The notes beneath the pieces are model-generated. The model was not told the DNA's origin. It saw only the letters and a program-made list of their open reading frames with translations, and searched no databases. From Candidatus Binatia bacterium (GTDB lineage: Bacteria; Desulfobacterota; Binatia; UBA9968): a stretch of DNA of 64,000 nucleotides. The first letter of the stretch is position 1. The number at the start of each line of letters is the position of its first letter. The stretch lies in contig DASXUF010000017.1 in assembly GCA_036504975.1 (NCBI GenBank), forward strand, positions 13,561 to 77,560. The letters are read 5' to 3'. The translations under genes and the position numbers were made by a program. Shown here in pieces: positions 35,735-59,690 of the stretch.

Positions 35735-35740
35735 GAACCG

Positions 35741-38088: not shown

Positions 38089-38102
38089 CGGGCGGCGGAT
38101 TT

Positions 38103-39038: not shown

Positions 39039-39039
39039 C

Positions 39040-39438: not shown

Positions 39439-39446
39439 ACGAAATC

Positions 39447-43395: not shown

Positions 43396-43870
43396 TCACC
43401 GGTTCGCCTTTTCGGACAAGAACTCCAGGACTTCTTGCGGATGCTCCTCGGCGTTCTTCACCGTCTGCCAATGTTTTCTGACCTTGCCGTCCGCGCCGAT
43501 CACGACCGTCGAGCGGATCGTGCCTTCGACCGTTTTGCCGTACATTATCTTTTTGCCCCAAGCGCCGTAGGCGCGCATGACCTTGGCCTCGGGATCTGAA
43601 AGCAATACGAATGGCAGGCGATAGGCGGTTTTAAATTTATCGTGCGACGCGGGACTGTCTTTGCTGACGCCGAGAACCGCGGCGCCCGCTTTTTGCACGT
43701 CTTGGTTTAAGTCTCTGAAGCCGCAGGCTTCCTTCGTGCCATCCGGGCGTGTTGTCTCTGGGATAAAAGTAGAGAACGACCGTTTTCCCGTTGTAGTCTT
43801 TGAGCCGATGGCGCTTGGCGTCGCTTCCTTCGAGTTCGAAATCCGGCGCCTTCTTTCCCTCCAGGTTCAT
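43396..43870 (-). pseudogene. bcp: thiol peroxidase Bcp (peroxiredoxin Q family) interrupted by a +1 frameshift at the peroxidatic-Cys codon
   Basis: Two overlapping minus-strand ORFs in different frames encode the N-terminal (MNLEGKKAPDFELEGSD...VVLYFYPRDNTPG) and C-terminal (QKAGAAVLGVSKDSPASHDKFK...) halves of Bcp. Deleting one G in the run around 43735-43737 restores the conserved ...PGCTKEACGFRD... motif. GGAGGA RBS precedes the ATG. Confidence 0.55.
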
Positions 43871-43989
43871 CGCGTCCTCCGTTCCGTGCGCCCGGTTCCT
43901 AGAGATAACGGCTATATGACAAATACCAAGGCCGGTCAACGACCCGCGCCGGATTGTTAACCATCAGTGGCGGCGCTATAGTTTCGGTG

Positions 43990-45084: not shown

Positions 45085-45141
45085 AAGCCGCTGGGAGCTG
45101 GGATAGATAATCGCACTCCAGGAAAGAAAGGAGATCCAAGG

Positions 45142-45447
45142 ATGGCAGCATTCGTTAAGGTGTGCAAAAAAACAGATATCCCGGCAGGATCTGGCAAGAC
45201 CGTTGACGTTAACGGCAAAGCGGTTGCTCTCTTCAACGTAGATGGAAACTTTCACGCCGTCGATAATACTTGCCTGCACCGCGGCGGACCTCTCGGCGAA
45301 GGCGAGCTGGACGGCAAAATCGTTACCTGTCCCTGGCACGGTTGGAGGTACGATGTAACGACCGGCACAAACGAACTCACCCCGTCGGTGACGGTGGCCA
45401 AATATGAAGTAAAGGTCGAGGGGGAGGACGTACTGGTCGCCGCGTAG
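45142..45447 (+). CDS. Rieske [2Fe-2S] ferredoxin (NirD/small-subunit type)
   Basis: 101 aa with Rieske ligand boxes (CLHRGGPL ... CPWHGWRY). Confidence 0.8.
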   Translation: MAAFVKVCKKTDIPAGSGKTVDVNGKAVALFNVDGNFHAVDNTCLHRGGPLGEGELDGKIVTCPWHGWRYDVTTGTNELTPSVTVAKYEVKVEGEDVLVAA

Positions 45448-45469
45448 ACTTTCAATCTCAGCGTTCGGC

Positions 45470-45550
45470 AAGTTGACCGTTCGTACTTCGACTAAGCTCA
45501 GCACGAACGGTAAAACTGGGACCGGTCATCCTGAGCCCGTCGAAGGATGA
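45470..45550. repeat. tandem REP-like hairpins (ccgttcgt-ACTTCGACTAAGCTCAGC-acgaacgg and gtcatcct-gagcccgtcgaa-ggatgac)
   Basis: The loop 15-mer ttcgactaagctcag recurs at 46712..46726 inside another hairpin. The second hairpin matches the gtcattctgagcgaagcgaagaatc-type element at 10524..10556. Confidence 0.5.
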
Positions 45551-45574
45551 CTCAGCGTTCCTTACAAAATCTTT

Positions 45575-46042
45575 CTAACTTCGATTGATTTTATCCAGCT
45601 CCTCCAGCAGCTCTTTGTTCTCGGGAATTCCCTTGTCGTATTCTTTGCGGTAGCGGATCATGCCCCGCTTGTCGATGATGACGACGGTCCGCTTGGGGTA
45701 TCCTTCCGGGCGCAGACAATTGTAGAGGGCGGTCACCGCTCCGTGCGGATAAAAATCCGACAGCATCGGGAAATTGATTCCGCCCATCTTCTCGGCGAAC
45801 GCCTTGTGTGAAAAAACCGAATCGACGCTTACGCTCAGAACCTGAGCGTCTCTGGCCTCGAACTCCTTGCGGTCGGCTTCGAGGTTGGTCAGCTCCTGCT
45901 GTCAGCCGCCGGTGAAATCCAGCGGATAAAACGCCAGCACGACGCTCTTCTTGCTGGCAAAGTCTTGCAAGCCGACTTTTTGTTCCCGCGATACGGGAAG
46001 AGTGAAATCGGGTGCCTTCTGGCCCACATCGACGGTCGCCAT
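45575..46042 (-). CDS. peroxiredoxin (AhpC/TSA family) with in-frame TGA at the peroxidatic-Cys position (candidate selenocysteine-containing Prx)
   Basis: ATG at 46042..46040 with a strong AAAGGAGGA RBS. The frame reads MATVDVGQKAPDFTLPVS...SVVLAFYPLDFTGG[TGA]QQELTNLEADRKEFEARDAQVLSVSVDSVFSHKAFAEK and joins, still in frame, the C-terminal ORF 45575..45787 (MGGINFPMLSD...). The TGA (45902..45904 on plus) is codon 47 and sits where Prx proteins carry T-x-x-C within FYPLDFTFVCPTE. A hairpin (CCUCGAA...UUCGAGG) lies 18 nt 3' of the UGA. Confidence 0.5.
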
Positions 46043-46080
46043 ACAAATCCTCCTTTAAAATCGAATCGTCCAGTAATCCA

Positions 46081-46626
46081 TTACTTCATTTTGGCGCCGA
46101 GGTAAACCCTGATGTAATCTCTCAACGCCTCGCGCGTACTGTCAAAGCCGAGGTCGTCCCAGGGAATTTCCCGAGAATCGAACGTGGCGGCCTCGACGGA
46201 CTCGTCGCCGGCTTCGAGCTGGCCGCCGATCACCTCCGCCGCGTAGACTACGATCACGTTGGGAGAACCCTTGTACGAATACACGCCGACGACCGGCCCG
46301 AGACGAACGTCGAGACAGGATTCTTCCCGCGTCTCGCGAATCGCCGCGTCCATAACGCTTTCGCCGCGATCGACGTAGCCGCCGGGAAAGACCCACTTGC
46401 CGAGCGCCGGCTCGACGCCGCGGCGCAGCAGGACCACGCGTTGGTCGATCGTGAACAACGTCCCGGCGACGACCTTTGGATCGAGATAAAAAATAAACGA
46501 GCATCCCGCGCACACGAGCCGCTTGGGCTCGCCGGCCTTCATCAGACGACGTTCCAAACCGCCGCCACACTGCGGGCAAAAACGATACTCGACGTGGCCG
46601 TGGCCGTGCTCTTTTAGGTGCGCCAT
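46081..46626 (-). CDS. NUDIX hydrolase with N-terminal zinc ribbon
   Basis: 181 aa. Cys4 ribbon (CPQCGG...CAGC) followed by a Nudix box (GGYVDRGESVMDAAIRETREESCLDV). Confidence 0.75.
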   Translation of the reverse strand: MAHLKEHGHGHVEYRFCPQCGGGLERRLMKAGEPKRLVCAGCSFIFYLDPKVVAGTLFTIDQRVVLLRRGVEPALGKWVFPGGYVDRGESVMDAAIRETREESCLDVRLGPVVGVYSYKGSPNVIVVYAAEVIGGQLEAGDESVEAATFDSREIPWDDLGFDSTREALRDYIRVYLGAKMK

Positions 46627-46878
46627 TTTTCTTATTTATCTTGGGACCTCAGGCTTCCGTGTGATGCAAGGCTCGGAAATCGCACCGCCGAGGCGCGGAG
46701 GGCACGTCCTTCGACTAAGCTCAGGATGCGCAGCTATGAAGGAATTCCGCTCGTGGTGAGCTTGTCGAACCATGCGAACTCCGTGTCTCGGTGGTGAATG
46801 ATTCTTCACAGGAAACCCTGAATAGCCTTTATCTTAGACTCGGTTGAAACAAAAGAGGGTATTCGGTAAGCCTTAGCC

Positions 46879-47574
46879 ATGCTGCGCGCCGTGATCTTCG
46901 ACTTCAATGGAATTTTGGTGAACGACGAGCCGATTCATTGGGAATTGTTCCGCAGAGTTCTGCTCGAAGAGGGCTTGGCGCTTAGCGACAAGGAATACTA
47001 CGAGCGCTATCTCGGCATGGATGACCGCGGCTGCTTCAGGGCGGTTTTCCAAGACCGGGGACGGTCGTTGAACGACGCCGCGCTCGCGAAGTTGATCAAG
47101 CGCAAGGCGGAATACTATCGCGCGTCGATCGCCGATCGCATGGTCGTTTTTCCCGGCGTGAAGGAGCTGGTGCCGGAGCTTGCCGCGCGCTTTCCGCTCG
47201 CCGTCGCCTCGGGCGCGCTGCGCGACGAAATCGAGCTAGTCTTGCAAAGCTTCGGCTTGAGAAATTTATTTCGTGCGATCGCGAGCGCGGAAGACGTCGC
47301 CGAAGGCAAGCCCGATCCCGGGATCTTTTTGAAAGCCCTTCAGACGCTCAACGATGAGTCCGGCGAGTCGGGGCCAGGCAAGGAATTGATTCGCCCTTCC
47401 GAGTGCCTCGTGATCGAGGACTCCAAGGAGGGAATCCTGGCCGCGCACCGCGCCGGCATGAAGTGCCTGGCGGTCGCCAACTCCTATCCCGCCCACGATC
47501 TCGCCTCGGCGAACGCCGTGGCCGACAGCCTGAAAGACGTGACCGTCGCGCTGCTCGAATCCCTGTTCAAGTAA
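46879..47574 (+). CDS. HAD-superfamily hydrolase, subfamily IA (phosphatase / beta-phosphoglucomutase-like)
   Basis: 231 aa. Motif I (VIFDFNGILVND), motif II (AVASGA), motif III/IV (LVIEDSKEGILAAHRAGM). Confidence 0.75.
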   Translation: MLRAVIFDFNGILVNDEPIHWELFRRVLLEEGLALSDKEYYERYLGMDDRGCFRAVFQDRGRSLNDAALAKLIKRKAEYYRASIADRMVVFPGVKELVPELAARFPLAVASGALRDEIELVLQSFGLRNLFRAIASAEDVAEGKPDPGIFLKALQTLNDESGESGPGKELIRPSECLVIEDSKEGILAAHRAGMKCLAVANSYPAHDLASANAVADSLKDVTVALLESLFK

Positions 47575-47635
47575 TTCTTGCAGACTTCTTCTGCGCCGGT
47601 TTTCTTGCTCATGCCTCACGCCTCTCGCCTCATGC

Positions 47636-48355
47636 CTATCGGTACGGTGTTTGCTGCGGCCGGATGGTGATTTCGACCGGGCACGAAGTTGTCGGCAAAG
47701 ACAGCACGAACAACACGGTCTCCGCGATATCGTCCGGCTGGATCATCTTGCTGCGGTCCAATCGTTTGTTGGGCGGAATCAACGGCGTATCCACGAATCC
47801 CGGAAGGATCACGGAAACTTTGATGCCGTATTCGCGCACCTCTTCGAAAAGCGACTGCGTGAATCCGATCACGCCGAATTTCGACGCCGAGTACGCGGCG
47901 GTGTTCGCCGAGCCCGCTTTGCCGGAGATCGAACCGATGTTGATGACCGCCCCGCTCTTTTTTTGCAGCAGCGTCGGAAGAACCAGGCGGGTCATGATCA
48001 TCGTCGCTCGCAGGTTGACCTGAAGCGTCCTGTCCACCTCTTCGATCTTGCTGTTCGCCACCGGCGCGGTTTTTCCCCATCCCGCGTTATTGACCAGAAT
48101 ATCGATCGACTCCCACTCTTTCAGCGTGCGCTCGACGAGACGCTCCATATCTTCGTCGCGCGTGACGTCCGTTGGCAAGACGAGCGCGTCGCCGTCACTG
48201 CTCCTGATCTCCTCGGCCACGGCGCGCAGCTCCGGCTCGCTCCGCGCCGCGAGCGCCACGCGCGCGCCGGCCCGGCTCAGCGCCAGGGCGATCGCCCGGC
48301 CGATGCCGCGGCCCGCGCCGGTGACGATCGCGACTTTATTCGTCAAAGACTTCAT
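47636..48355 (-). CDS. SDR-family oxidoreductase (3-oxoacyl-ACP-reductase-like)
   Basis: 239 aa. TGAGRGIG cofactor motif, NNAG, catalytic YxxxK (YSASKFG). Confidence 0.85.
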   Translation of the reverse strand: MKSLTNKVAIVTGAGRGIGRAIALALSRAGARVALAARSEPELRAVAEEIRSSDGDALVLPTDVTRDEDMERLVERTLKEWESIDILVNNAGWGKTAPVANSKIEEVDRTLQVNLRATMIMTRLVLPTLLQKKSGAVINIGSISGKAGSANTAAYSASKFGVIGFTQSLFEEVREYGIKVSVILPGFVDTPLIPPNKRLDRSKMIQPDDIAETVLFVLSLPTTSCPVEITIRPQQTPYR

Positions 48356-48375
48356 AAATTCGCCGGCGCATGAAC

Positions 48376-48798
48376 TCAGTGCACGGTCGAAGGCTCGATC
48401 GGCGCGGGCGGGTGCGCGACCGGCGAGCCATGATGATGGATCAACAGCCAGCCCTCCGGACGCTTTTCAAAGATGTTCGTCGTCAATACGACCGCGGCGA
48501 CCGACTCTTGGCCGACACGGTTGGTGAGGTTTTCGTACAGCGTTACCCATGCCAGAGAATCGCGCACCTCGACCCGCGCTTCGGTCAGCACAAAGCGGAT
48601 CTCGTCCGTATTCTCGAAAATTCTGCGCCAGCTCGTCATGACCGGCTCCCATCCCCGCAACATTTCCCAGCCGGGGTGAAAACATTGGATGGTGTCCGCC
48701 TTGAGCCAGACGCGCTCCATCCGCGCGATATCGAAGCTCTCGAAAGCCCGGTAAAAGTTTTCGTTCGCCGTATAAACGGCTCTTTGTTCGCTGGTCAT
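48376..48798 (-). CDS. SnoaL-like / NTF2-fold (DUF4440-type) protein
   Basis: 140 aa with composition and length typical of the ketosteroid-isomerase-like NTF2 fold. No catalytic assignment possible. Confidence 0.45.
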   Translation of the reverse strand: MTSEQRAVYTANENFYRAFESFDIARMERVWLKADTIQCFHPGWEMLRGWEPVMTSWRRIFENTDEIRFVLTEARVEVRDSLAWVTLYENLTNRVGQESVAAVVLTTNIFEKRPEGWLLIHHHGSPVAHPPAPIEPSTVH

Positions 48799-48810
48799 GA
48801 TTGCTGAGCC

Positions 48811-49137
48811 TCAGTGCAACGGCCTGGGCGCCATGAAGACGAGAAGGACGAGGCGATCCGGTCCGGGGTTCGTGACACCGTGCTTCTGTCCGGACGGGGC
48901 CATCACAATCTCTCCGTCGCCCAGCTCTCTTTCCTCGGTTCCAACCTGAAAGGCCCCTTTGCCCTTCACGACATAATAAATTTTGTCCGAGCCTTCGTGC
49001 GCGTGCGCCGCCTGGCTTTGGCCCGGCTCGAAGCAATAGAGATCGCAGAACAGCCGCTCGGTCTCGAAAAGACCGTTCTTCTTCATCTTGTCCGCCGCGA
49101 ACTGCATCGCCGCGGAAATTTTTTTAAAGTTGGCCAT
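48811..49137 (-). CDS. single-domain cupin protein
   Basis: Start placed at MANFKK with a GAAGGAGA RBS 5 nt upstream. Cupin motifs (GQSQAAHAHEGSDKIYYVVKG ... GEIVMAPSGQKHGVTN). Confidence 0.55.
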   Translation of the reverse strand: MANFKKISAAMQFAADKMKKNGLFETERLFCDLYCFEPGQSQAAHAHEGSDKIYYVVKGKGAFQVGTEERELGDGEIVMAPSGQKHGVTNPGPDRLVLLVFMAPRPLH

Positions 49138-49416
49138 CGCCGTCTCCTTCGAACTCATTGCTTTCATACAGCGCGCCAACCCTGCAAATCAAGAGGAAAT
49201 TGTTAGATTGCTTCATTGAGGAACCCGCCGGCCTGGGTGTGTCTCGTAGGGCCGATGCGTCGCCCGAGAAATATCCAAGCGTACTTTAGAATTCCACCCT
49301 AGAAAACTCGTGCCGCGTAACACCGCCGTATCGCATCGGCCCGGAGAGATACTCCCAGGCCAGCGGTTAGCGGTAAGTCGATGGGTCTTTTTCAACGGCT
49401 GTGTTATCTTGACCGC

Positions 49417-50580
49417 ATGAATTCCGTTCTGGTCCGCTATCACGAAATCGCCTTGAAGAAAGGCAACCGTCCTTACTTTATCGACCTGCTGAAGAGAAAC
49501 CTGGTTTCGGCGGTCGGCGGTCTGCCGCTCACCGAGGCGAAGACGCTGCAAGGGCGAATTCTTCTTTCCTTCGGCGCAGAAGCGCCTCGGGAAGAAATCG
49601 GCCGGCGACTCGAGCGCGTCTTCGGCGTCGCCAATTTCTCCTTTGTCGAGCGCATGCCTGCGGACATCGACGAGATCGAAAAACGGATCGTTCAAGCGCT
49701 GGACGGCAAACAGTTCGCTTCTTTCCGCATCGACGCGCGCAGAGCGGACAAAGATTTTCCGCTCACGTCTCCCGACATCAATCGCAAGCTCGGAGCCGCC
49801 GTCAAGGCGAAGAGCGGCGCCCGCGTAGACCTGGAAAACGCCGAGCTCACCGTATCGGTCGAAATCCTGCCGCGCACGGCGTTCTTCGGCTTCGATAAAA
49901 TTGCTGGCGCCGGCGGCCTGCCCGTCGGCGCCAGCGGCCGGGTCGTTTCGCTTATCTCCGGCGGCTTCGATTCTCCCGTGGCGGCTTACCGAATGATGCA
50001 GCGGGGCTGCCGGCTCATCTTCGTTCATTTTCACAGTGCGCCTTATTTGGACAAGACTTCACAGGAAAAATGCCGCGCGCTGGTGAAGCTCCTTACGCGA
50101 CACCAGTTCACCTCTCGCCTTTACCTGGTCGCGTTCGGCGAGATTCAGCGCCAGATCGTCGCCGGAGTTTTACGGCCTTTGCGCGTCGTGCTCTATCGCA
50201 GGATGATGCTGAGGATCGCTGAAGCGATCGCGAAGAAGGAAAAAGCGCAAGCCCTGGTGACCGGTGAGAGCCTGGCGCAGGTTGCGTCGCAAACGTTGGA
50301 AAACCTCGCCGTCATCGGCAAGGCCGCGACTCTTCCCTTGCTTCGTCCGCTGGTCGGCATGGACAAGCAGGAGATCATCGATCAAGCGCGCAGGATCGGC
50401 ACGTTCGAGACATCGGCGACGCCGGACCAGGACTGCTGCCAGCTTTTCGTGCCCAAGCATCCGGCGACCAAGGCAAAACTCGCCGACGTCGAAGTAGCGG
50501 AAGCGAAGATCGATTTTCTGGCGCTGGTTCAACTCGGAGTGGAAGGCGCACAGGTTGAAGAATTCAAATTTCCAGAGTGA
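49417..50580 (+). CDS. thiI: tRNA 4-thiouridine(8) synthase ThiI (THUMP + PP-loop ATPase)
   Basis: PP-loop (SGGFDSPVAAY) and ThiI-like N-terminus (VLVRYHEIALKKGNRPYF). An alternative upstream ATG lies at 49381. Confidence 0.75.
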   Translation: MNSVLVRYHEIALKKGNRPYFIDLLKRNLVSAVGGLPLTEAKTLQGRILLSFGAEAPREEIGRRLERVFGVANFSFVERMPADIDEIEKRIVQALDGKQFASFRIDARRADKDFPLTSPDINRKLGAAVKAKSGARVDLENAELTVSVEILPRTAFFGFDKIAGAGGLPVGASGRVVSLISGGFDSPVAAYRMMQRGCRLIFVHFHSAPYLDKTSQEKCRALVKLLTRHQFTSRLYLVAFGEIQRQIVAGVLRPLRVVLYRRMMLRIAEAIAKKEKAQALVTGESLAQVASQTLENLAVIGKAATLPLLRPLVGMDKQEIIDQARRIGTFETSATPDQDCCQLFVPKHPATKAKLADVEVAEAKIDFLALVQLGVEGAQVEEFKFPE

Positions 50581-50688
50581 CTTTGCGGCCTTGGCGTCTT
50601 GGCGCGATGAAGAATTCGGATCGGATAAAAACGATCTCGCGCAAAGACGCAAAGAGCGCCAAGGAAAACGGTGAACAACCGGTAGAAA

Positions 50689-51822
50689 ATGAAAGTCGGA
50701 ATTATCGGCGGCGGACCCGCAGGTCTCTACTTCGCACTGCTGATGAAGAAACACGACCCGCAGCACGAGATCGAGATCGTAGAGCAGAACCCGCCCGACA
50801 GCACTTACGGCTGGGGCGTCGTTTTTTCGGGCCGCGCCTTGTCATTCCTGGAAGAGAGCGACCGCGATTCCTACGCCGATATCGCCCGCAGGCTTGAACT
50901 TTGGGACCAACAAGGGATTGTCCACAAAAGTCAAAGGGTCGCGATTCGCGGCGGCACATTTTCCGGGCTCGCTCGAATCGACCTCTTGCGCATTTTACAA
51001 GAACACTGTCGGAAAGCCGGCGTAATATTCCACTTTCAAACCCGGGTCTCCGATCCGGAGCTTTTTTCCGACTGTGACCTCGTCGTCGGCGCGGACGGCG
51101 TCAACAGCATCGTGCGGCAGAAATATCGGGAACACTTTCAACCGACGCTGGACGTGCGGTCGAACAAATATGTCTGGTACGGAACGAATCAGCGGTTCGA
51201 CTCCCTGACCTTGATCTTTCGCCAAAACCAAGACGGTGTCTTCGTCGCCCATTCTTACAGCCACAGCAAAAGCGCCAGCACTTTCATCGTCGAGTGCGAT
51301 GCGCCCACCTGGGTTAAAGCAGGCTTTGAATCGATGACCGACGAAGAAAGCCGCAGTTACTGCGAGGAGGTCTTCAAAGACGATCTGGGCGGCCACACGC
51401 TGCTGTCGAACAAGTCCGTGTGGATTAATTTCGTCGTGGTGGGTAACCGGCGCTGGAGCTATAAAAACATCGTGCTGATCGGCGACGCGCTCCGCACGGT
51501 GCACTTTTCCATCGGCTCAGGCACGAGAACGGCGTTCGAAGACGCGATCGCGCTGTACCGGACCTGTGCGGCGAACGAAAACGTTGAAGCGGCGCTGGGT
51601 GAATTTGAGCGAAGCAGAAAGCCGACCGCCGATCGGCTGCTCGAGGTCGCGCATCATAGCCTGGTTTGGTACGAGCGCTTTGGGGACAAGATGGATCTCG
51701 ATCCCATCCCCTTTGCCTACGATTACATGACGAGAGGCGGAAGAATCGATCACGAAAAGCTGCGCGAGCGAGATCCCGAATTCATCGCCGCGTACGAAGC
51801 CTACAAGGCATCGCAGTCGTGA
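50689..51822 (+). CDS. FAD-dependent aromatic-ring monooxygenase (salicylate-hydroxylase / UbiH-like)
   Basis: 377 aa. GxGxxG (KVGIIGGGPAGL), DG motif (VVGADGVNS) and GD motif (VLIGDALRTVHFSIGSGT). Confidence 0.8.
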   Translation: MKVGIIGGGPAGLYFALLMKKHDPQHEIEIVEQNPPDSTYGWGVVFSGRALSFLEESDRDSYADIARRLELWDQQGIVHKSQRVAIRGGTFSGLARIDLLRILQEHCRKAGVIFHFQTRVSDPELFSDCDLVVGADGVNSIVRQKYREHFQPTLDVRSNKYVWYGTNQRFDSLTLIFRQNQDGVFVAHSYSHSKSASTFIVECDAPTWVKAGFESMTDEESRSYCEEVFKDDLGGHTLLSNKSVWINFVVVGNRRWSYKNIVLIGDALRTVHFSIGSGTRTAFEDAIALYRTCAANENVEAALGEFERSRKPTADRLLEVAHHSLVWYERFGDKMDLDPIPFAYDYMTRGGRIDHEKLRERDPEFIAAYEAYKASQS

Positions 51823-51867
51823 ATGCCGGCAAATGTTTCGCCACTCAAAGCGAAATGCGTGGGAGCC

Positions 51868-53886
51868 CTACTTTTTTTGGGACGCAGTACTCTCTTTTGG
51901 AACCGTCCGAAGTACCACACCTCGATCTCGTGCCCAACACTCCCTATCTGTCTCAGGGCACGCTGGACCTTCCTCACTGGTGATTGTAATGCGGTTGCTC
52001 TCAATACCTCCACGTGTTTGCAAGTAGTTGACAATACTTTCTGCCCTTTTAGACGGTAAATCCAAACTTTCCCCGGAAAGCGGATTTTGTCTCTTATACC
52101 AAACAACAAGTAAGCTATAATTTGGGTTTTGTTTAAAGAACATTGCGAGACGATCCAGAAGTTTTGCGGCATCCGGTTTCAAAGCAGTCTTGTCAAAATC
52201 AAACAACACAATGTTGTCAAGAATTACGGTACGTTCAATCTTAGGAGAGGGAGCGGCTTTTTTCGCCTGCTGCTCCACCTCTTCCAACCTCTTTGCCGCT
52301 TCTTCCGTTCTCCGCTGCACCTCGGCGACCTGTTTCTCAAATTGAGCAGCCCGCTGAACTTCGGGCTGTTGACCACCACCGGCAGCGGCTTTCCTTTGCA
52401 AGGCATTCAATTTTGCCAAGGTCATTGCAAGCTCTTCTTGAGCCACAACGAGATCTTTCGCCCGCATTGCGATACCCTGCTCTAACTTCGCTTGTTCAAC
52501 TGCCCTTAGTGCGGTTTGCCGCTGCAGATCAGCCTCCCTCTTTTGGAACAAGGATACACTAGTACCCAGAATAAGCATTATCGCAAAAATCGTCTTAAAA
52601 ACGGTTGGCACACGAAACCGCCGGCTCCTCCTTACTGCGCCCGCTACGCTGTCGTGACTAAGCTCATAATAAAATCCCTTCAGACCAGGGCGGGCCTCTT
52701 TTCGTATCAGCTTGGCATCGACAAGTGTTTTCAGCGCATTCTCCGAGATCCCGTATTGTTTACGAATCTGACCGTACTCCATGCTTATTCTGTGGCCGTC
52801 TGGACTCAGAAGTCCTAGTTCGCATAGACGTCGCGAGCGGCAACGCTGCCGAAAAGATGAGATCTCTCGCACAGCTTGACGGTAGAAATTTTCGAGGAGT
52901 TTTTCCATGTTCTTGGCGCCACCGAGCAATTGGTCATCAACCAGGATGTCTTTTGACCCTTCTTGCTGGCGGCGAAGAACCTGTTGCTCCGCGTGCTGGC
53001 AGATAATTTGAAGCTGAAACGGTTCCACTTCACCTTGTCGACTGGCCAGAAAAGCCATTATGCTGTCGAGCGTAGCTTTCTTATAACGAAAAGGCCGCGT
53101 CGCGAACACTTCAGGTAAGTCCAGAAGCGCCGGCTCAACCACGGCTCGTCGAGCCGCTTGCGTATCCAACGGTGTGAGACGAAATCGCTGCTCGAAGATT
53201 CCGGGAATATTCTGGACAAGTTGCTCCAGCGCTCCCACGTACTCTTCGCGGAAACTCAAGATAATCTTAATTTCTGGTGGCGAGTCCGCATAACGCCCGC
53301 GATCTGGCGAGGGCGGCTCCTTACGAATCCTTTCCGGTAAGCCTCGGCCGACAAGCTCCCCCAGTTGACGTGCGAGGGCGACGCGAACAGATTCCGACTG
53401 CAGATTGAATACCTCCTCGAATTGATCGAAGACCAGGACCGGTACCTGAAGCGTATCACCGCGCCATAAGTCCGTGGCCTTGAAAAATTCCCACAAACCT
53501 TCAGTTTTACGGTCGGTATAGTCAACCGCCTGTTCCTGACAGGTAGTTCGCAGCAACGCAAAAACAGCTTCAATGGGACCGATATCGGGTCGATCAAGCC
53601 GTATGCTTACGGGCAGTAGTCCGTACTCGCGGAGTCGTGGGAAAAGGCCTGCTCTTAGAAGAGATGTTTTTCCCAGACCCGATTTGCCGAAAATGACGAG
53701 CATGCGAGTCGCTCGAACCCGATGCACTAAATCGTAGATTTCCTGCTCGCGGCCAAAAAACAATCGTTGATCGAGTTCGTTGTCTTCGAAGTACCGTGGA
53801 CCGGGATATCGCTCGTGTGAGCCGGGCGTCAGAGACAAGACTGTTTCTTCTTCACGCTTCGCTATGGCGACCGCAGCTTTACTCAC
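51868..53886 (-). CDS. STAND-type P-loop NTPase with central TM helix, periplasmic coiled coil and C-terminal OmpA-like peptidoglycan-binding domain (island gene 4)
   Basis: 672 aa, GTG start 2 nt after the upstream stop. The N-terminal NTPase has Walker A (GKSGLGKTS) and Walker B (VLVFDQFEE) in an nSTAND/AAA_16-like context, preceded by the FGREQEI motif. A hydrophobic segment (VFKTIFAIMLILGTSVSLF) follows, then a Gln/Ala/Glu-rich coiled coil. The C-terminal ~100 aa (LFDFDKTALKPDAAKLLDRLAMFFKQNPNYSLLVV...SKRAESIVNYLQTRG) are OmpA_C-like. Low-GC segment. Confidence 0.55.
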   Translation of the reverse strand: MSKAAVAIAKREEETVLSLTPGSHERYPGPRYFEDNELDQRLFFGREQEIYDLVHRVRATRMLVIFGKSGLGKTSLLRAGLFPRLREYGLLPVSIRLDRPDIGPIEAVFALLRTTCQEQAVDYTDRKTEGLWEFFKATDLWRGDTLQVPVLVFDQFEEVFNLQSESVRVALARQLGELVGRGLPERIRKEPPSPDRGRYADSPPEIKIILSFREEYVGALEQLVQNIPGIFEQRFRLTPLDTQAARRAVVEPALLDLPEVFATRPFRYKKATLDSIMAFLASRQGEVEPFQLQIICQHAEQQVLRRQQEGSKDILVDDQLLGGAKNMEKLLENFYRQAVREISSFRQRCRSRRLCELGLLSPDGHRISMEYGQIRKQYGISENALKTLVDAKLIRKEARPGLKGFYYELSHDSVAGAVRRSRRFRVPTVFKTIFAIMLILGTSVSLFQKREADLQRQTALRAVEQAKLEQGIAMRAKDLVVAQEELAMTLAKLNALQRKAAAGGGQQPEVQRAAQFEKQVAEVQRRTEEAAKRLEEVEQQAKKAAPSPKIERTVILDNIVLFDFDKTALKPDAAKLLDRLAMFFKQNPNYSLLVVWYKRQNPLSGESLDLPSKRAESIVNYLQTRGGIESNRITITSEEGPACPETDRECWARDRGVVLRTVPKESTASQKK

Positions 53887-53888
53887 GA

Positions 53889-55211
53889 TCAGTCCCCTCT
53901 AATACGGTTCTGCCGCTTAACCCAGTTCGCCTGGATGTGACTCGCCAGGCGTTCCAGGCCATGTGGATCAGTCAGTTCAACACGCTGTAACTTATCCAGG
54001 CGTTCGAGTCCTAGGGACCCTTCCAAAATTGCAGGAATCAGAAAAGACTCGCCCTCATCGAATTCCTTTTGCCGCTCCAGTGCTTCCGCGATCTCTTTAT
54101 GGATATAACTCCGCGGTTTCGAAAGCATGTTCGGTGTTTGAAGTACAAGTACGTAGTCCACTTGCTTCCCCAGGACATGTACGATGCGTCTATTCCAATC
54201 ATCGCCACCGCGGAGATCCTGCTGGTCGCGCCATGTATCGACCCCGAGGCTATGTAATTTTTGCTCCACTTCCATCACCCGCTCTTGATCACGCCTATCG
54301 TAGCAAAGGAATACTTTGGGAGAGTTGGGCGGTATTTCCCGTACTACTGCCTGTGGAGCTTGTGCTTCGTAGAGCCGACGCAGCTCAGACGCAAAGTCGG
54401 ACCACGAATAATGCCGGAACTCGATCTTGTGCTCCTGGGTGAAAAACACTGCGCTTTGAGCGCTATCCGGGTGGTCGAAGAATGCAGCACCTTCTACCGC
54501 CAACGATCGATTACGATGGCGATACGTTTGCAAGACGTGAAGCAGCACACGCGCGTACCAGCGCTGAAAACCAAAACCAAGAAACAGAAACGACGTGCCA
54601 GGGTCGGCGAGCTGACCCGCGATATACGGCGGCAGAGGATGGGTACCTTTGATTATATTTACCAGGAATTCCAGCAAGTCGGTCTCTGTTAATACCAACG
54701 AATCTAGTTCCTTAAGATCGCCGTGGAGTTGATAGACGATTGGATGCTGAATAGTACCTTTGGAGAGACTCGTCGGCCGATGTTTCTGGTAATGGTAAAA
54801 GTCGTAAGTCGAAGATTTGTGGGCATCTTTCAAAGCGTTTACCATGAAGGGGACATAACTCATGCTCAAACAAAGTGTAAAAGGCAACGCAGCGAGATCT
54901 TCATGAAACCGCGAGGTACGCTTCGCAAACGGCGCATAGAAGTCCTTTACTTCCAGTTCCAGATCGTAGTGATCACCTCCGGGACTGTTGCAACGGAGCT
55001 GAGCCACCTGGGCTAAGTCCTTCCGAATGATATCTGGCGTATCTGCCGGCAGTTTTCGAGCCAGGTGTTGGGCGAGTTTGGTTGTGAGCGGGGTGTGATC
55101 AGGGTCGTCGGGATCAAAAACCATATCAGGTCCGCATACGAGGACACAGTTGCCCCGATTGATCGATTCAATTAAGCGGCGCCAGTCTTGTTCTGAAAGG
55201 CTATCTTTCAT
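53889..55211 (-). CDS. SIR2-like (SIR2_2/DHS-like) N-domain fused to a C-terminal TIR domain (island gene 3)
   Basis: 440 aa. The N-terminal ~250 aa match SIR2_2-type blocks (NCVLVCGPDMV ... HPIVYQLHGDLKELDSLVLTETDLLEFL ... SFLFLGFGFQ). The C-terminal ~140 aa form a TIR domain (KVFLCYDRRDQERVMEVEQKLHSLGVDTWRDQQDLRGGDDWNRRIVHVLGKQVDYVLVLQTPNMLSKPRSYIHKEIAEALER) with the conserved Glu context. Confidence 0.55.
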   Translation of the reverse strand: MKDSLSEQDWRRLIESINRGNCVLVCGPDMVFDPDDPDHTPLTTKLAQHLARKLPADTPDIIRKDLAQVAQLRCNSPGGDHYDLELEVKDFYAPFAKRTSRFHEDLAALPFTLCLSMSYVPFMVNALKDAHKSSTYDFYHYQKHRPTSLSKGTIQHPIVYQLHGDLKELDSLVLTETDLLEFLVNIIKGTHPLPPYIAGQLADPGTSFLFLGFGFQRWYARVLLHVLQTYRHRNRSLAVEGAAFFDHPDSAQSAVFFTQEHKIEFRHYSWSDFASELRRLYEAQAPQAVVREIPPNSPKVFLCYDRRDQERVMEVEQKLHSLGVDTWRDQQDLRGGDDWNRRIVHVLGKQVDYVLVLQTPNMLSKPRSYIHKEIAEALERQKEFDEGESFLIPAILEGSLGLERLDKLQRVELTDPHGLERLASHIQANWVKRQNRIRGD

Positions 55212-55271
55212 GTCAGAGTCTTTTTCTAGTCGGGTCGCAATTCCGTTTCAGGACAACTGCACCTAGAACAA

Positions 55272-56144
55272 CTAACTCAACGTTAGCTCGGCCTTTCCAA
55301 TTCCGCCGGCCGGAATTGTGACGGATATTTCAGATGCTTTGGGAGTACCGTTAATGATTCCTTCCGCCTTTACGACATGCACTCCAGGCGACAACTCTCG
55401 AAGAGCTGCGCTCTTACCGGTATAGTTGGCCGGACTTCCTCCGTCGATCGAGAGTTTCCAAACCGCCGCGCTCTGATCGCCATTCGTTACAGTTACGTTT
55501 AAACCTCCCAACTCGCTCACAGCCGCCTTTGCCCTCGCGGCCTCTTCTACTTGCTTCAAACTTTCCTGAAATTCGCGAATCCAAGTATTCGTCTCCTCTT
55601 GGACGACCGTTGTGACCTGATTAATAAAAGTCTTCGCCCGGCCCAGCATCGTTTGGACCTGGTCATCCGTCGGGTCTGATCCCTTCCAACCCGCTTTCAA
55701 GGTTTGCCATTCCAATTCGAACTCCCGTAGAAGCTGACGAATCCGCAGCTCCGCCGAAATGTAACGCATCCACCCGCTGGAAAAACCAAAGAAGCGGTCG
55801 ACTACGATCATCGCGGCGGCAATACCCAAAGACACGGAAGCCCATGCCGGCTGTATCAACGGCTTGCCGTCCTCAACAAAAATCTGAACTACCATCGGAA
55901 TAATTCCGGCCAGTGCTGTTAGAACGATTGCTCCCATTCGCGCCCGCATTGCCCATTGCTGTTTAGGTCGTTTTGCTTTCAAGTACCAATCTATAGCGCT
56001 TTTAGCCTCGGCCGTTAGGTGATCAAATAAAAGCTCAAGAGAATTCTGGCGCTTGCTAGGCTCCCATTCTAATTTAGGAAGTGGAGAATGTTGAATGTCC
56101 GTCCGCTTAGGCATTCCTGACTGTTTCCGCCTTATGGCAATCAA
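55272..56144 (-). CDS. SLATT-like 2-TM protein with C-terminal beta-rich (Ig/PEGA-like) domain (island gene 2)
   Basis: 290 aa. An amphipathic N-helix (AIDWYLKAKRPKQQW) is followed by two closely spaced TM helices (MGAIVLTALAGIIPMVV / VSLGIAAAMIVVDRFF). A helical segment follows (WMRYISAELRIRQLLREFELEW), as in SLATT pore-forming effector domains. The C-terminal ~90 aa are beta-rich. Confidence 0.4.
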   Translation of the reverse strand: MIAIRRKQSGMPKRTDIQHSPLPKLEWEPSKRQNSLELLFDHLTAEAKSAIDWYLKAKRPKQQWAMRARMGAIVLTALAGIIPMVVQIFVEDGKPLIQPAWASVSLGIAAAMIVVDRFFGFSSGWMRYISAELRIRQLLREFELEWQTLKAGWKGSDPTDDQVQTMLGRAKTFINQVTTVVQEETNTWIREFQESLKQVEEAARAKAAVSELGGLNVTVTNGDQSAAVWKLSIDGGSPANYTGKSAALRELSPGVHVVKAEGIINGTPKASEISVTIPAGGIGKAELTLS

Positions 56145-56324
56145 TCCTCAGCCTAGCTGGTTGGTTAGTAAAATAGGGCGAATTGTGGATTGGTGTCAAG
56201 ACGAAACAGGGATGATCCCGAATCAAATAATTTTTGCGTCGCTTTTGCTCCGTCTTTGAAGGACGACTCACTTTTCAAAACGGTAGCTTTGGAGGGCAGG
56301 TCAGTCAAAATAAGACGCTGCAAT

Positions 56325-57131
56325 CTACGCTTTTTGGAATCTGAGTTGCCCATCTCTAACCTCTGCCGAAAATTCTACAATTTGAAACGTAATATTCTCG
56401 CCGGTTACTTGGATTCCTAAATTATATAAACCATCCGGAAATTTATTAGGTCGCGATCTGTCGGCGTAAAAAATGACAAATTCTTTCTCATCTCCAGCCG
56501 CCTCAACCTTTCCAACGACGGTAATAAAGTTGCTCCCACCTGGATTTAAATCGAACGCTGTCCTGTAGGGAATGTCGTCATCTGATGGCCTGTCATGCAT
56601 CTGCCTGAGCGGAATAGGTAAGAATGGAACTCTATATTCTCTGACGTAAGCTAGCTCCACTTTGATGTTTTTTAGCACCACATCACTTAGATTTTTTATT
56701 TCAATTCGATGCATCCGTAGAAAAGCACCAGCCCAAACCTCATCTACTTGTTCATACGATCCTCCGACATCATGTAGAATTGCGACTTTAGCTGTTAACC
56801 GGTCCTCGAAATATTCGATGGTTTGGCGTTGCGAGATATCAATTAATACGGGAGTCGCAATGGTACGCACTAGAAAAAATCCCGCAGCAACTATCATGAA
56901 TGCCCCAAAAATCGATAGGGCAGGAATCACGACATCATCTGTTAGCTTAGGGATTTCCCATTCAAAGATATTTACCAAAAAATACCAGCCTATTACCGTG
57001 ACTAATGCCGTCTTGAGAACTGAGGCAAAGGATCCAAATATCCCTGTAACCGTATCCTTAAAAGCTTTCGCAAGAATCGTTCTCCAATATTGACCAAAGT
57101 GCTTGGCGAACTTCCAAGACAAAACCAGCAT
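56325..57131 (-). CDS. hypothetical integral membrane protein (island gene 1)
   Basis: Start placed at internal ATG (MLVLSWKF) with a GAAGGGGGG RBS. Three or four N-terminal TM helices then a ~170-aa soluble domain with no recognisable motifs. Lowest-GC gene of the island. Confidence 0.4.
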   Translation of the reverse strand: MLVLSWKFAKHFGQYWRTILAKAFKDTVTGIFGSFASVLKTALVTVIGWYFLVNIFEWEIPKLTDDVVIPALSIFGAFMIVAAGFFLVRTIATPVLIDISQRQTIEYFEDRLTAKVAILHDVGGSYEQVDEVWAGAFLRMHRIEIKNLSDVVLKNIKVELAYVREYRVPFLPIPLRQMHDRPSDDDIPYRTAFDLNPGGSNFITVVGKVEAAGDEKEFVIFYADRSRPNKFPDGLYNLGIQVTGENITFQIVEFSAEVRDGQLRFQKA

Positions 57132-57297
57132 ACCTGCCCCCCTTCCAATCGCGGGCAGTCTAGGACGTACCTCCGATTTAGGCAAACGATGGCGGAAACT
57201 ACTTTGGTCTCAAGTCCGACTTGATTACCAAAGCGTTGAGTCGGAGAGTGGCCTGAACTCTAGGTTTAAATTAGTTTTCTCCGGACTCGGATTGTCA

Positions 57298-58944
57298 TTA
57301 TCTGACGAGTTTTTTCCGCACCGCTTCCCGCAGATCCTTTTTGGAAATCTTTCCCACAGCAGTGGTCGGAAGCCGGTCTAGAATTTCCAGCCGCTCGGGT
57401 AGTTTAAATCTAGCGATGCGCTTCTCTTCCCGAAGGAAACTGCTGAGATCTTCTAGGGAAAGCGCCGCTCTCGGTCGAAGGACTACGCACGCGCAGGCCC
57501 GCTCGCCCAAGACCGCGTCAGGCATGGCGACAACGGCGGCGTTCAGCACGGCGGGATGGGAAAGAATCAAGCTTTCGACTTCTTCCGCGCTGATCTTTTC
57601 GCCGCCGCGGTTGATCGTGTCTTTCTTCCGGCCTTCCACGATCAAGTTGCCGCTCGGATGGCGCCGCACGAGATCGCCGGTGCGGTAGAAGCCGTCGGCG
57701 GTGAAGGCGGTCCGATTGTAGTCGTCGGCCTTATAGTATCCCCGGATGGTGTAAGGTCCGCGGCAAAGAAGCTCGCCGATTTCCCCGGGCGCGACTTCTT
57801 TTCCGTCATCATCGACGATTCTCGTCTCATCGTCCGCGCTGGCGGGCCTTCCCTGCGTTTCCAGAATGACCTCGATGGGATCGCTGCTGCGAGTCGCGCA
57901 GAGAAGCCCTTCCGCCATCCCATAGACTTGCGCCACGACTGGGCCGAAGGCTTTGCGCGCCAGCCGCGCCGGCTCGGCATGGAGGCGCGAGCCGCCGACG
58001 ATAAGAGTTTTGATCGAGGTCAAATCATAATGCGCTCGTCGAGAGTCGGCGAGCCAGGTGATCACCGAGGCCGGGACCGCCGGAATCCAGGTCACACGCT
58101 CGCTTTGCACCAGAGAGAAAACCGTCTCCGGCTCGGGCGACGGCGCAAGAACCACGCGCGCGCCCAGCAGCAGTGCTCCTTGTATTCCCGGGCAAGCGAG
58201 CGGGAAGTTGTGCGCGATCGGAACCGAAACGAGGATTACGGTTTCCCCGTCGAAGTCAGTGACGGCGGCGAACTGTTTCGAGTTGTACAGATAATCGTTG
58301 TGCGTCCGCGGAATGACCTTTGGAAGGCCCGTCGTCCCGCCGGAGAGTTGGAAGACGGCCGGGGCGTCGGGATCGGGCCGAAGCCGTTCCAGAGATTTTG
58401 CCGGGAGTCGATTTTCGATTGCATCGTCGAGGAGATCGGCGACCCGCGTCATGCCGCGTCCGGTGCGCTCTCCGACGACGAAAATCTCTCGGAGCGAGGG
58501 GAGCTTGTCGCGCAGCTCCTCGGCCATCGCCACGTAGTCGAAGTTTCTGAACTCCGACGGAATAAACCAGGCGGCCGCGCCCGTGAATCGCGCTAGATAC
58601 TCGATCTCCGCGTGCCTATGGGCGGGAAGACAAGCGAGCGGGATCGCGCCGACCTTTAGGCAGGCGAAGTAAGCGACAATAAACTCAAGGACGTTCGGAA
58701 GCTGGAAAACGACGCGTTTTCCGCCCGAGATCTCGCGCTCGGCGAGGTGAAGCGCGAACCTGTCAACCAGCACTCTTAACTCGCCGTACTTGACCCGGCG
58801 CTTTCCATCGACGACGGCGACTCGATCGGAATTCTTTTGGACCGACTGGTCAAAAGCCTCTCCGAGAGTCACGCCAGCCCAGTAACCGCGCTCACGGTAC
58901 AAGCGGGCAAAATCATCCGGCCATGGAACCGCTCCATTCAACAC
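57298..58944 (-). CDS. (2,3-dihydroxybenzoate)-AMP ligase-like aryl-acid adenylating enzyme (EntE/DhbE family, ANL superfamily)
   Basis: 548 aa. AMP-binding motif (LSGGTTGLPK), A8/A10 blocks (YRTGDLVRR ... GKISKK). The N-terminus resembles EntE (RLYRERGYW). Confidence 0.8.
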   Translation of the reverse strand: MLNGAVPWPDDFARLYRERGYWAGVTLGEAFDQSVQKNSDRVAVVDGKRRVKYGELRVLVDRFALHLAEREISGGKRVVFQLPNVLEFIVAYFACLKVGAIPLACLPAHRHAEIEYLARFTGAAAWFIPSEFRNFDYVAMAEELRDKLPSLREIFVVGERTGRGMTRVADLLDDAIENRLPAKSLERLRPDPDAPAVFQLSGGTTGLPKVIPRTHNDYLYNSKQFAAVTDFDGETVILVSVPIAHNFPLACPGIQGALLLGARVVLAPSPEPETVFSLVQSERVTWIPAVPASVITWLADSRRAHYDLTSIKTLIVGGSRLHAEPARLARKAFGPVVAQVYGMAEGLLCATRSSDPIEVILETQGRPASADDETRIVDDDGKEVAPGEIGELLCRGPYTIRGYYKADDYNRTAFTADGFYRTGDLVRRHPSGNLIVEGRKKDTINRGGEKISAEEVESLILSHPAVLNAAVVAMPDAVLGERACACVVLRPRAALSLEDLSSFLREEKRIARFKLPERLEILDRLPTTAVGKISKKDLREAVRKKLVR

Positions 58945-59294: not shown

Positions 59295-59690
59295 GTGGTG
59301 CTGCTCCTCGATACCCACGTCCTGATCTGGTGGTTGGCAGACGACCGCAGGCTAAGCAAGGACGCACGCAACTTAATCGCCGACGCCCATCACCGGGTGC
59401 TCGTTAGCGCCGCGTCCGTCTGGGAGATTGCCATCAAATCCGCTCTAAAAAGGATTGAAATCGAACTCGACGACCTGGAGGACGCGATTCTCAAAAGCGG
59501 ATTCGAGCCTTTGCCGATCGCCCTGCTACATGCCGTCCGAGTCGGTCGACTGCCAGATGTTCACCGTGATCCGTTCGACCGCATGCTGGTAGCTCAAGCC
59601 GGCGTCGAAGAACTGCGGCTAGTCACTCATGATCGAGTATTCGAGCGCTACGGTCTGACCGCCGAAGGCCTGCCACCCATTTTCGTTTGA
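59295..59690 (+). CDS. vapC: type II toxin VapC (PIN domain RNase)
   Basis: 131 aa, GTG start. PIN acidic residues (LLLDTHVLIWW ... SVWEIAIK ... LVTHD). Confidence 0.8.
   Translation: MVLLLDTHVLIWWLADDRRLSKDARNLIADAHHRVLVSAASVWEIAIKSALKRIEIELDDLEDAILKSGFEPLPIALLHAVRVGRLPDVHRDPFDRMLVAQAGVEELRLVTHDRVFERYGLTAEGLPPIFV

Follow-up and report, generated by a model that had tools for sequence, protein, structure and literature searches.

Does a STAND NTPase that carries a transmembrane (TM) helix and an OmpA-like domain behind its switch module receive its signal from outside the cytoplasm, and does it do so by gripping the cell wall? To our knowledge, every bacterial immune sensor of the STAND/NLR-like kind that has been characterised by experiment finds its phage proteins in the cytoplasm. 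Here, we describe a gene of this layout (the STAND gene, encoding the STAND protein) in a 64,000-nucleotide stretch of Candidatus Binatia bacterium DNA (contig DASXUF010000017.1, positions 13,561 to 77,560; the window is this whole stretch, and coordinates are positions in it unless another locus is named), along with the gene directly upstream of it, which encodes a SIR2-like-TIR protein (the partner). We read the STAND protein as the receptor and switch of a cassette that was acquired horizontally and probably acts by abortive infection, with the input domain outside the cytoplasm, and assign this reading a probability of about 0.5. An earlier note on this DNA, made by a model from the letters, had raised the question of the wall and is taken up below where our results bear on it. 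The STAND gene and the parts of its product (positions in amino acids, aa) are:

51868..53886, minus strand: STAND gene, an intact open reading frame (ORF), stop codon included, for a 672-aa nSTAND1-TM-stalk-OmpA-like product.
52645..53808, minus strand: nSTAND1 NTPase module, aa 27-414 (P-loop, helical part, winged-helix-like end; predicted cytoplasmic), from PF20703, AlphaFold2 (AF2) and Foldseek.
53665..53688, minus strand: Walker A, GKSGLGKT, aa 67-74, from a motif scan.
53413..53439, minus strand: Walker B region, VLVFDQFEE, aa 150-158, from a motif scan.
52546..52611, minus strand: single predicted TM helix, aa 426-447, VPTVFKTIFAIMLILGTSVSLF, from hydropathy and AF2.
52255..52545, minus strand: A/Q/E/K-rich helical stalk, aa 448-544, from composition and AF2.
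51898..52221, minus strand: OmpA-like (Pal/YiaD-type) domain, aa 556-663, with the Cys643/Cys650 pair retained, from Pfam, NCBIfam, PDB and Foldseek.
52066..52101, minus strand: replaced ligand loop, W596-Y-K-R599-Q-N-P-L-S-G-E-S607, where the consensus is G-H-x-D-x-R-G-T-x-x-Y-N, from an alignment.

The domain order proposed in the earlier note (P-loop STAND NTPase, single TM helix, helical stalk, OmpA-like domain) is confirmed by Pfam, hydropathy and an AF2 model built on 118 relatives (mean predicted local distance difference test score, pLDDT, 84.7). Hidden Markov model searches place both end domains above their Pfam gathering thresholds, nSTAND1 (PF20703) with 103.1 bits against 27.1 over aa 27-414 and OmpA (PF00691) with 40.2 bits against 27.2 over aa 561-638, and the motifs DFDKTALKPDAAKLL, NPNYSLLVV and SKRAESIVNYL are all found in the protein. 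The PF20703 match also puts the Walker motifs in the STAND family, as had been supposed; Foldseek, which for the NTPase module ranks Orc1/Cdc6 AAA+ proteins at the top (E 1e-8), followed closely by the STANDs ZAR1, NOD2 and SAMD9, cannot by its ranking alone separate STAND from Orc/Cdc6. The module is modelled with pLDDT >90 as an alpha/beta domain, helical bundles and a beta-hairpin-bearing end. Among the 118 relatives, G70, G72, K73 and S75 of the Walker A region and D154 of Walker B are invariant, Q155, F156, E157 and E158 are conserved in at least 90%, and the NTPase residues that are invariant among relatives are all intact in the STAND protein. For the C-terminal domain, a sequence search of the PDB finds Pal (2hqs, 1oap) at E 1e-9 across aa 557-659, and Foldseek gives Pal 2hqs with a TM-score to target of 0.66 and a root-mean-square deviation of 4.3 Å, at a model pLDDT there of 36-79. 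NCBIfam matches of the STAND protein are confined to the OmpA-like parts of the Pal, PorE, YiaD and CHU_0125 models and lie far under the full-length cut-offs. The gene starts with GTG, 2 nt past the stop codon of the upstream gene, and is preceded by a Shine-Dalgarno (SD)-like AGAGGGGA. Its DNA and its product (P0001) are identical in an independent JGI contig (L001), the whole 13.7 kb of which match window 43738-57458 exactly.

The STAND protein has one hydrophobic segment only, aa 426-447, with a 19-residue Kyte-Doolittle (KD) mean of 2.0, no Asp or Glu within it, and RRSRRFR flanking it on the N-terminal side. In the AF2 model, a continuous helix (aa 428-501) includes this segment and is followed by a GGGQQP break and a second helix (aa 508-544). 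What had been described as a long Q/A/E-rich coiled coil is well supported as a helical stalk and partly supported as a coiled coil over aa 448-544: heptad (3.5-residue) periodicity is strong in aa 508-544, where it was reached by 0 of 2000 shuffles, but in aa 448-501, which are helical too, it is not significant (p=0.32). The host is a diderm, because the window carries a secretin and Tad pilus genes (Tad/Flp-type cluster at 32883-40658, with the secretin at 32883-34418, a TadA-like ATPase at 35741-37117 and a TadE/G-like protein at 39447-40658), and the genomes of the relatives all belong to diderm phyla (Bacteroidota, Acidobacteriota, Verrucomicrobiota, Proteobacteria). The best-matching relatives of the OmpA-like domain are lipoproteins or secreted proteins, and the periplasm-type Cys pair C643/C650, of a kind typical of oxidising compartments, is kept. 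From the one TM helix, the basic N-terminal flank, the diderm host and the Cys pair, we infer a periplasmic OmpA-like domain; the STAND protein is most likely a single-pass, N-in/C-out protein with its NTPase predicted in the cytoplasm.

The TM helix recurs well beyond this protein. A homologue search returned 1043 relatives at E<=1e-5, and all among those listed carry PF20703; the closest 120 were analysed for their C-terminal domains, and 87 related loci were fetched for their gene neighbourhoods. A TM-like segment (KD 1.7-3.2) stands at the equivalent position in 104 (by a strict positional criterion) to 111 of the 120 relatives and in at least 76 of the 87 loci, and no such hydrophobic segment lies inside any of the relatives' NTPase modules (~48,000 residues). 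Across the 87 loci, the 15 residues before the helix hold a mean of 4.9 K+R, versus 3.0 in those after it. The predicted TM helix after the NTPase is a clade-wide feature, not one special to the window protein, and therefore would imply extracytoplasmic sensor domains throughout. What follows the helix varies: FGE-sulfatase (PF03781) is present in 51 of the 120 best homologues, the rest have TPR, WD40 or nothing recognisable, and an OmpA domain occurs only in the identical copy of the STAND protein. The nearest relatives, which end in FGE-sulfatase, are 57-65% identical over aa ~22-450, and identity to the STAND protein stops just past the hydrophobic helix, at aa ~440-474. Judging from these alignments, the domain behind the helix is swappable in this clade, being FGE-sulfatase, TPR, WD40 or, rarely, a stalk plus OmpA. 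With the helix clade-wide and the C-terminal domain exchangeable, the premise of the earlier note that such STANDs are normally cytosolic fails for this clade.

Published descriptions place these sensors inside the cell. The paper that defined nSTAND1 and the STAND-FGS architecture calls the FGS-type sensor intracellular (PMC8195603), and for nSTAND1 proteins of Thiohalocapsa that are targets of diversity-generating retroelements (DGRs), a cytoplasmic location was predicted (bioRxiv 10.1101/2023.09.22.558884). Neither of these papers, nor a survey of STAND sensors (PMC13581612), mentions the TM helix of the clade, the sensors being called intracellular or cytoplasmic, and literature searches found no description of STAND-TM-OmpA proteins or of the clade's TM helix, which is not proof of absence. 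Together with the large TPR/WD40 arrays that would need export behind the helix of some relatives, these placements favour a cytosolic alternative, in which the helix is peripheral or does not span the membrane and the OmpA-like domain binds a cytosolic ligand, for instance one like a muropeptide or peptidoglycan precursor. We consider this quite unlikely, because in ~90% of relatives one conserved position holds a stretch of at least 19 residues with a hydropathy of 2.0-3.2 while the NTPase residues scanned hold none, the charge bias is positive-inside, the closest OmpA-like domains sit in exported proteins, and the conserved Cys pair suits an oxidising compartment.

Given an extracytoplasmic OmpA-like domain, its ligand site bears on whether it could hold the wall. 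In the crystal structure of PorE with peptidoglycan, the side chains of Asp576, Asn584 and Arg591 hydrogen-bond the stem peptide (PMC7192894), where they bind its meso-diaminopimelate (meso-DAP) residue (PMC7192894). The spacing of this triad (8 and 7 residues) maps to R599, S607 and R614 of the STAND protein, so that only the Arg is retained. A MAFFT alignment with 125 OmpA-domain relatives gives the same picture column by column: the triad Asp (94% D) is replaced by R599, reversing the charge, the triad Asn (95%) by S607, and the triad Arg (97% R) is matched by R614, while the loop columns G (93%), H (80%), G (95%) and Y (88%) read W596, Y597, P602 and E606. Toward the C-terminus, columns of N (94%) and R (90%) are occupied by D654 and G656. 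The fold scaffold is kept (FDFDK, L577, A581, N587-P588, L610, R614-A615, Y621-L622 and G627, and also R632, P641, C643, C650-W651 and R655). A compensated frameshift or sequencing error in the loop was considered and rejected, since no other frame encodes GHxD..YN and the DNA of the independent contig is identical. Canonical DAP-type peptidoglycan binding is doubtful for the window copy because the Asp and Asn of the triad and nearly the whole ligand loop are lost, and its OmpA-like domain probably has no canonical stem-peptide grip. The peptidoglycan-binding domain of the earlier note survives as an OmpA-like fold; its canonical binding, with only the Arg of the contact triad left, is unlikely.

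An exhaustive HMMER search of 1.84 billion representatives with the OmpA-like domain found, below E 1e-30, only the STAND protein itself, with the next matches at <=45% identity. None of the 149 best relatives of the domain carries a related NTPase, and no credible Walker A motif is seen in the 38 with a length of at least 400 aa. The domain is most closely related to small lipoproteins whose Pro-rich linker ends in "APKVERTIILD...", where the STAND protein has "APSPKIERTVILD..."; three of the matches (P0126, P0130 and P0143) share with it the domain entry APK(V/I)ERT(I/V)ILD..FDFDKTA(I/L)KPD. These closest lipoproteins keep GHTD..YN..RRA, and the STAND protein reads WYKR..ES..KRA. By this resemblance, the domain came from a Pal/YiaD-type lipoprotein lineage. 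A 135-aa protein (P0241) is the closest match to the N-terminal half of the domain, with 63% identity to its first 45 residues (PKVERTIILDDVLFDFDKSTIKPEAAQILDRL...) and divergence after them, and may be a truncated or frameshifted relative.

Such a history could also have ended in a dead end, that is, a recent swap of an FGE-sulfatase sensor for a decaying lipoprotein OmpA-like domain that leaves the protein inactive or constitutively silent. The domain is a singleton at <=45% identity and only the identical copy carries this C-terminal end, its first half seems (by eye) closer to P0126 and P0130 than its second half does, the ligand loop is scrambled, and GC content drops further toward the 3' end of the STAND gene. 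We hold this to be unlikely, as the 672-codon frame is intact with no frameshift, the scaffold is kept (the Cys pair, Arg614-Ala615, Tyr-Leu, Gly627, Arg632, Pro641 and Arg655), the invariant NTPase residues are all intact, and the coupled start and SD are retained. In the reading that we favour, the OmpA-like domain would be a ligand-binding or sensor domain put to new use, or else a remnant that binds weakly or not at all.

The same layout was found a second time. One related locus (L043, from a Bacteroidota metagenome-assembled genome) encodes nSTAND1 (118 bits) and OmpA (37 bits) in one protein, and a search with that protein found at least 16 full-length clusters at 39-51% identity and 706-748 aa with the same two Pfam domains (subfamily members P0271-P0287; loci L043 and L089-L091). 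Some of them are named "OmpA family protein" by NCBI, through automatic annotation only. All full-length members have one TM helix (aa ~469-519), a 68-122-aa linker to the OmpA-like domain, and an intact Asp/Asn/Arg triad (HTD..N..R..NRR). The window and Bacteroidota fusions arose independently, thus twice, because the NTPase modules of the subfamily are only ~30% identical to that of the window protein. As judged from its domain matches, the STAND-OmpA layout is rare but recurrent rather than unique. The partner gene directly upstream in the subfamily encodes SIR2_2-EAD11. Genes for EAD11-CHAT proteins (CHAT being a caspase-like protease) lie divergently beside the SIR2_2-EAD11 and nSTAND1-TM-OmpA genes in L043 (3773-4873, minus strand) and L089 (2722-3675, minus strand), and EAD11 pairing would recruit a protease to the Bacteroidota STAND-OmpA system.

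The subfamily bears on the mechanism that the earlier note had proposed, in which the OmpA-like domain anchors to peptidoglycan as in MotB and ZorB and the tethered NTPase senses envelope perturbation or phage DNA entry, here taken as mechanical sensing that would trigger TIR and SLATT. The N-in topology with one TM helix and a periplasmic OmpA-like domain does resemble MotB/ZorB, a stalk of ~100 aa in both STAND-OmpA lineages (68-122 aa in Bacteroidota, 96 aa from TM helix to OmpA-like domain here, versus ~31 aa in FGE-ended relatives such as P0003) would fit a need to reach the wall layer, and the Bacteroidota members retain the peptidoglycan-contact triad. For the window copy, however, we find this mechanism rather doubtful: two of three contact side chains are replaced (Asp to Arg, Asn to Ser), the consensus loop residues G596, H597, G602 and Y606 are lost, and of the MotB/ZorB-like geometry only the topology stands, since the TM helix has no Asp, no MotA/ZorA/ExbB/TolQ-type gene is a neighbour and PADLOC gives no Zorya match. 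Membership in the MotB/ZorB stators was likewise rejected, there being no Asp or Glu in the TM helix, no stator partner, no Zor match in PADLOC, and scores of only 14-20 bits against the NCBIfam MotD, MotS and MotB-family models (cut-offs 253-312). The idea of envelope-perturbation sensing fits the Bacteroidota subfamily, with its triad intact, better than the window copy.

If the input comes from outside, the output presumably lies with the gene upstream:

53889..55211, minus strand: partner gene, 440 aa, SIR2-like (aa ~45-234) plus TIR_2 (aa ~298-422), from Pfam.

The partner matches SIR2_2 with 41 bits and TIR_2 with 60 bits, and its gene is translationally coupled to the STAND gene. In 78 of the 87 loci, the immediate upstream neighbour of the nSTAND1 gene is a SIR2-like or TIR gene, often SIR2_2 plus TIR_2, and the two genes commonly overlap by 4 nt. 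In one locus (L002, 139-2913), SIR2_2, TIR_2, nSTAND1 and the TM helix are joined in a single 924-aa ORF (P0050), which is followed at 2900-3543 by two FGE-sulfatase fragments in other frames; P0050 is a real fusion or reflects indel errors in a short metagenomic contig, with the same gene order and tight coupling either way. By gene order, the core of the cassette is a gene for a SIR2-like domain plus an effector or adaptor domain, then a gene for nSTAND1, TM helix and a variable, predicted extracytoplasmic domain.

The SIR2-like domain is a doubtful enzyme. Aligned with ThsA, whose Asn112 and His152 we take to be the catalytic residues, the window partner has Ser118 for the Asn and keeps the His (His163). 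Across 74 partner proteins, the Asn column holds T or S and never N (74/74), and the His column holds F, L or Y in 72; the window partner also has Val120 where the partner family has a 93%-conserved Asp. This pattern suggests that the SIR2-like domain is probably not the enzyme, with a pseudo-enzyme or adaptor role instead. The TIR segment YIHKEI, in our own reading, fits the WCxxEL motif and puts Glu373 at the catalytic-type position. Because EAD11 replaces TIR behind the same module in the Bacteroidota loci, the SIR2-like module appears to behave as a constant adaptor and its C-terminal domain (TIR or EAD11) as a variable effector or recruiter. Membership of the partner in Thoeris was rejected, as it has no ThsA-type Asn, its TIR and SIR2-like domains form one protein, and a separate ThsB is absent.

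Under the reading that we favour, the NTPase/helical/winged-helix switch (aa 27-414) would sit in the cytoplasm, joined by the TM helix (aa 426-447) and a stalk of ~100 aa to the OmpA-like domain that the stalk holds in the periplasm. An extracytoplasmic signal would be relayed via the stalk and TM helix, and the relayed signal would license nucleotide-dependent oligomerisation of the NTPase. Oligomerisation would then cluster the TIR domains of the co-translated partner, leading to NAD+ cleavage or production of a nucleotide signal. A SLATT two-TM protein encoded next door would be a plausible locus-specific, membrane-disrupting executioner downstream. These neighbours upstream of the partner are:

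55272..56144, minus strand: SLATT_2 two-TM protein, 290 aa, its gene 60 nt upstream of the partner gene.
56170..56199, minus strand: promoter-like site TTGACA-18-TATTTT just upstream of the SLATT start, from a consensus scan (10/12 matches; weak evidence).
56325..57185, minus strand: 286-aa ORF (ORF286) upstream of SLATT, with two TM segments.

Both neighbours named by the earlier note, TIR and SLATT, are real by Pfam and NCBIfam, and SLATT_2 scores 139.7 bits against NF033633 (cut-off 40) and 74 bits against PF18183 (cut-off 25), with TM segments at aa 68-92 and 96-122. The idea that SLATT is a third component conserved across loci was nonetheless rejected, since 75-87 related loci hold no homologue of it and no recurrent two-TM ORF upstream. 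The search suggested by the earlier note, for other genomes with STAND plus OmpA next to TIR or SLATT, had a mixed outcome: the Bacteroidota STAND-OmpA genes were found, but with EAD11 rather than TIR in the partner, and SLATT was seen in 0 of 87 loci. A metagenome scan for close SLATT relatives returned none, and also missed the JGI contig that carries SLATT, so it does not indicate absence. Promoter and terminator scans of the region gave numbers of sites not above those in shuffles. ORF286 has no Pfam, PADLOC or NCBIfam match; it lies at the lowest-GC end of the island (GC 0.42-0.45), and the JGI gene calls there are 268 and 62 aa.

The four co-directional genes (ORF286, SLATT_2, SIR2-like-TIR and STAND) have GC contents of 0.42-0.55, versus 0.55-0.65 in the flanks. 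The flanking genes are metabolic, a FAD monooxygenase among them, and this setting would suit a non-immune use of the STAND protein, as a housekeeping ATPase for envelope-stress or cell-wall signalling. We regard such a use as highly improbable, because the conserved partner bears TIR or EAD11, EAD11-CHAT protease genes adjoin in Bacteroidota, SLATT is adjacent, the GC content of the island is atypical, and genes of DGRs, BREX-type BrxC, toxin-antitoxin systems, integrases and AbiEi lie near relatives. Specifically, DGR genes (RVT_1 reverse transcriptase plus bAvd) stand beside FGE-ended relatives in L005 (3971-5448) and L008 (9155-10666), and toxin-antitoxin, integrase, BrxC and AbiEi genes are found near several relatives' loci. 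In L005, the neighbourhood further includes a second DUF4062-nSTAND1-FGE gene, an IS1595 transposase and genes of the BrxC/BrxD type. Elsewhere in the window, a 131-aa ORF at 59295-59690 (plus strand) beginning MVLLLDTHVLIWWL is presumably a candidate PIN-domain (VapC-type) toxin-like protein by our reading of its sequence, a sigma-54 activator lies at 41579-42892 (minus strand), and a dCache-HAMP-MCP chemoreceptor lies at 26230-28404.

Several points weigh against the favoured reading and hold its probability where we have put it. The defence role of the cassette is read from its genes, PADLOC has no model for the STAND protein, and the link to SLATT is adjacency in one locus. The topology is read from hydropathy, charge bias and the AF2 helix, and the published nSTAND1-FGS description calls the sensor intracellular (PMC8195603). 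The OmpA-like domain is a singleton at 50% identity, and selection on it is therefore not assessable. Finally, the residues in the Asn and His columns of the partner family leave the effector chemistry uncertain.

A broader version of the favoured reading is possible, which we offer tentatively: the clade may consist of single-pass TM NLR-like receptors, each with a variable sensor outside the cytoplasm that signals inward to the NTPase and a TIR or EAD partner, with OmpA-ended members guarding the cell wall and the window copy serving as a receptor for a non-peptidoglycan periplasmic ligand. Candidates for such a ligand would include components of a phage tail or ejection apparatus and products of wall degradation, and the arrangement would combine Toll-like-receptor and NLR logic in bacteria. 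If the clade does span the membrane with its variable domain outside, NLR-type switches would also serve bacteria to watch over the periplasm or cell wall, ahead of genome entry or in the course of it, and the many DGR-diversified FGE-sulfatase 'antigen sensors' would have to be reread as extracytoplasmic. The two forms of OmpA-ended members, with the triad intact or lost, would make wall anchoring separable from ligand sensing. The SIR2-like partner domain becomes a candidate pseudo-enzyme, its apparent family-wide loss of catalytic residues suggesting an adaptor role. The clade-wide TM helix and the Bacteroidota STAND-OmpA subfamily seem more interesting than the single gene.

Among known systems, Pal/YiaD-type lipoproteins match the C-terminal domain best, in sequence and in fold; they are small and keep GHTD..YN..RRA intact, whereas the window domain, with WYKR..ES..KRA, forms one protein with an NTPase anchored by a TM helix. 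The Avs proteins characterised so far are soluble; their effectors are fused at the N-terminus, and their TPR-like sensors detect phage proteins in the cytosol. This description of their solubility, effectors and cytosolic sensing comes partly from PMC13581612. Avs/AVAST and bNACHT systems share with the STAND protein a P-loop STAND switch with TIR/SIR2-type effector domains and an activation expected to be driven by oligomerisation; in contrast to Avs/AVAST, the window protein has a TM helix and a predicted extracytoplasmic C-terminus. Membership in Avs/AVAST was rejected on the grounds that no Avs model matched (PADLOC, NCBIfam), a second protein carries the effector, and a TM helix stands between the NTPase and the C-terminus.

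ZorB and MotB are alike in their N-in single-pass topology and periplasmic OmpA-like domain, a geometry that is proposed to couple envelope events to defence in Zorya (PMC11890865). The window protein differs in its TM helix without an ion-conducting Asp, its lost triad, its lack of a ZorA/MotA partner, and the 425-aa cytoplasmic NTPase that takes the place of a short N-terminal tail. The iSTAND MoxR-vWA ternary systems have TM-preceded OmpA, PEGA, PASTA or Sel1 effector domains (Kaur et al., eLife 2020, PMC7159879), which gives a precedent for a peptidoglycan-associating domain behind a TM helix in conflict systems and suggests action near the membrane or wall. There, however, OmpA is on the vWA component, whereas here it is fused to an active-type STAND NTPase, with no MoxR or vWA genes.

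The Bacteroidota subfamily shares the domain order, the single TM helix, a stalk of 68-122 aa (96 aa here) and a SIR2-like partner directly upstream. In the subfamily, a charged cytoplasmic helix comes before the TM helix, which is ~60 residues more distant from the NTPase; the triad is kept, and the partner ends in EAD11 rather than TIR, without SLATT. The nSTAND1-FGS (FGE-sulfatase/C-type-lectin-fold) conflict systems were described computationally (Kaur, Iyer, Burroughs & Aravind, eLife 2021, PMC8195603), and descriptions of DGR-diversified nSTAND1-CLec 'antigen sensors' come from Dore et al. (bioRxiv 10.1101/2023.09.22.558884). With nSTAND1-FGS, the window protein shares the NTPase family, nearest relatives that are 57-65% identical and in some cases stand beside a reverse transcriptase plus bAvd, and a plan of constant NTPase, variable C-terminal domain and NAD+-targeting partner domains. 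It differs in ending in a stalk and OmpA-like domain, in the TM helix that precedes the C-terminal domain across the clade, and in having its effector on a separate SIR2-like-TIR protein rather than in an N-terminal fusion. As far as its domains indicate, what is new in the window is a variant of the computationally defined nSTAND1 conflict systems with a stalk and an OmpA-like end.

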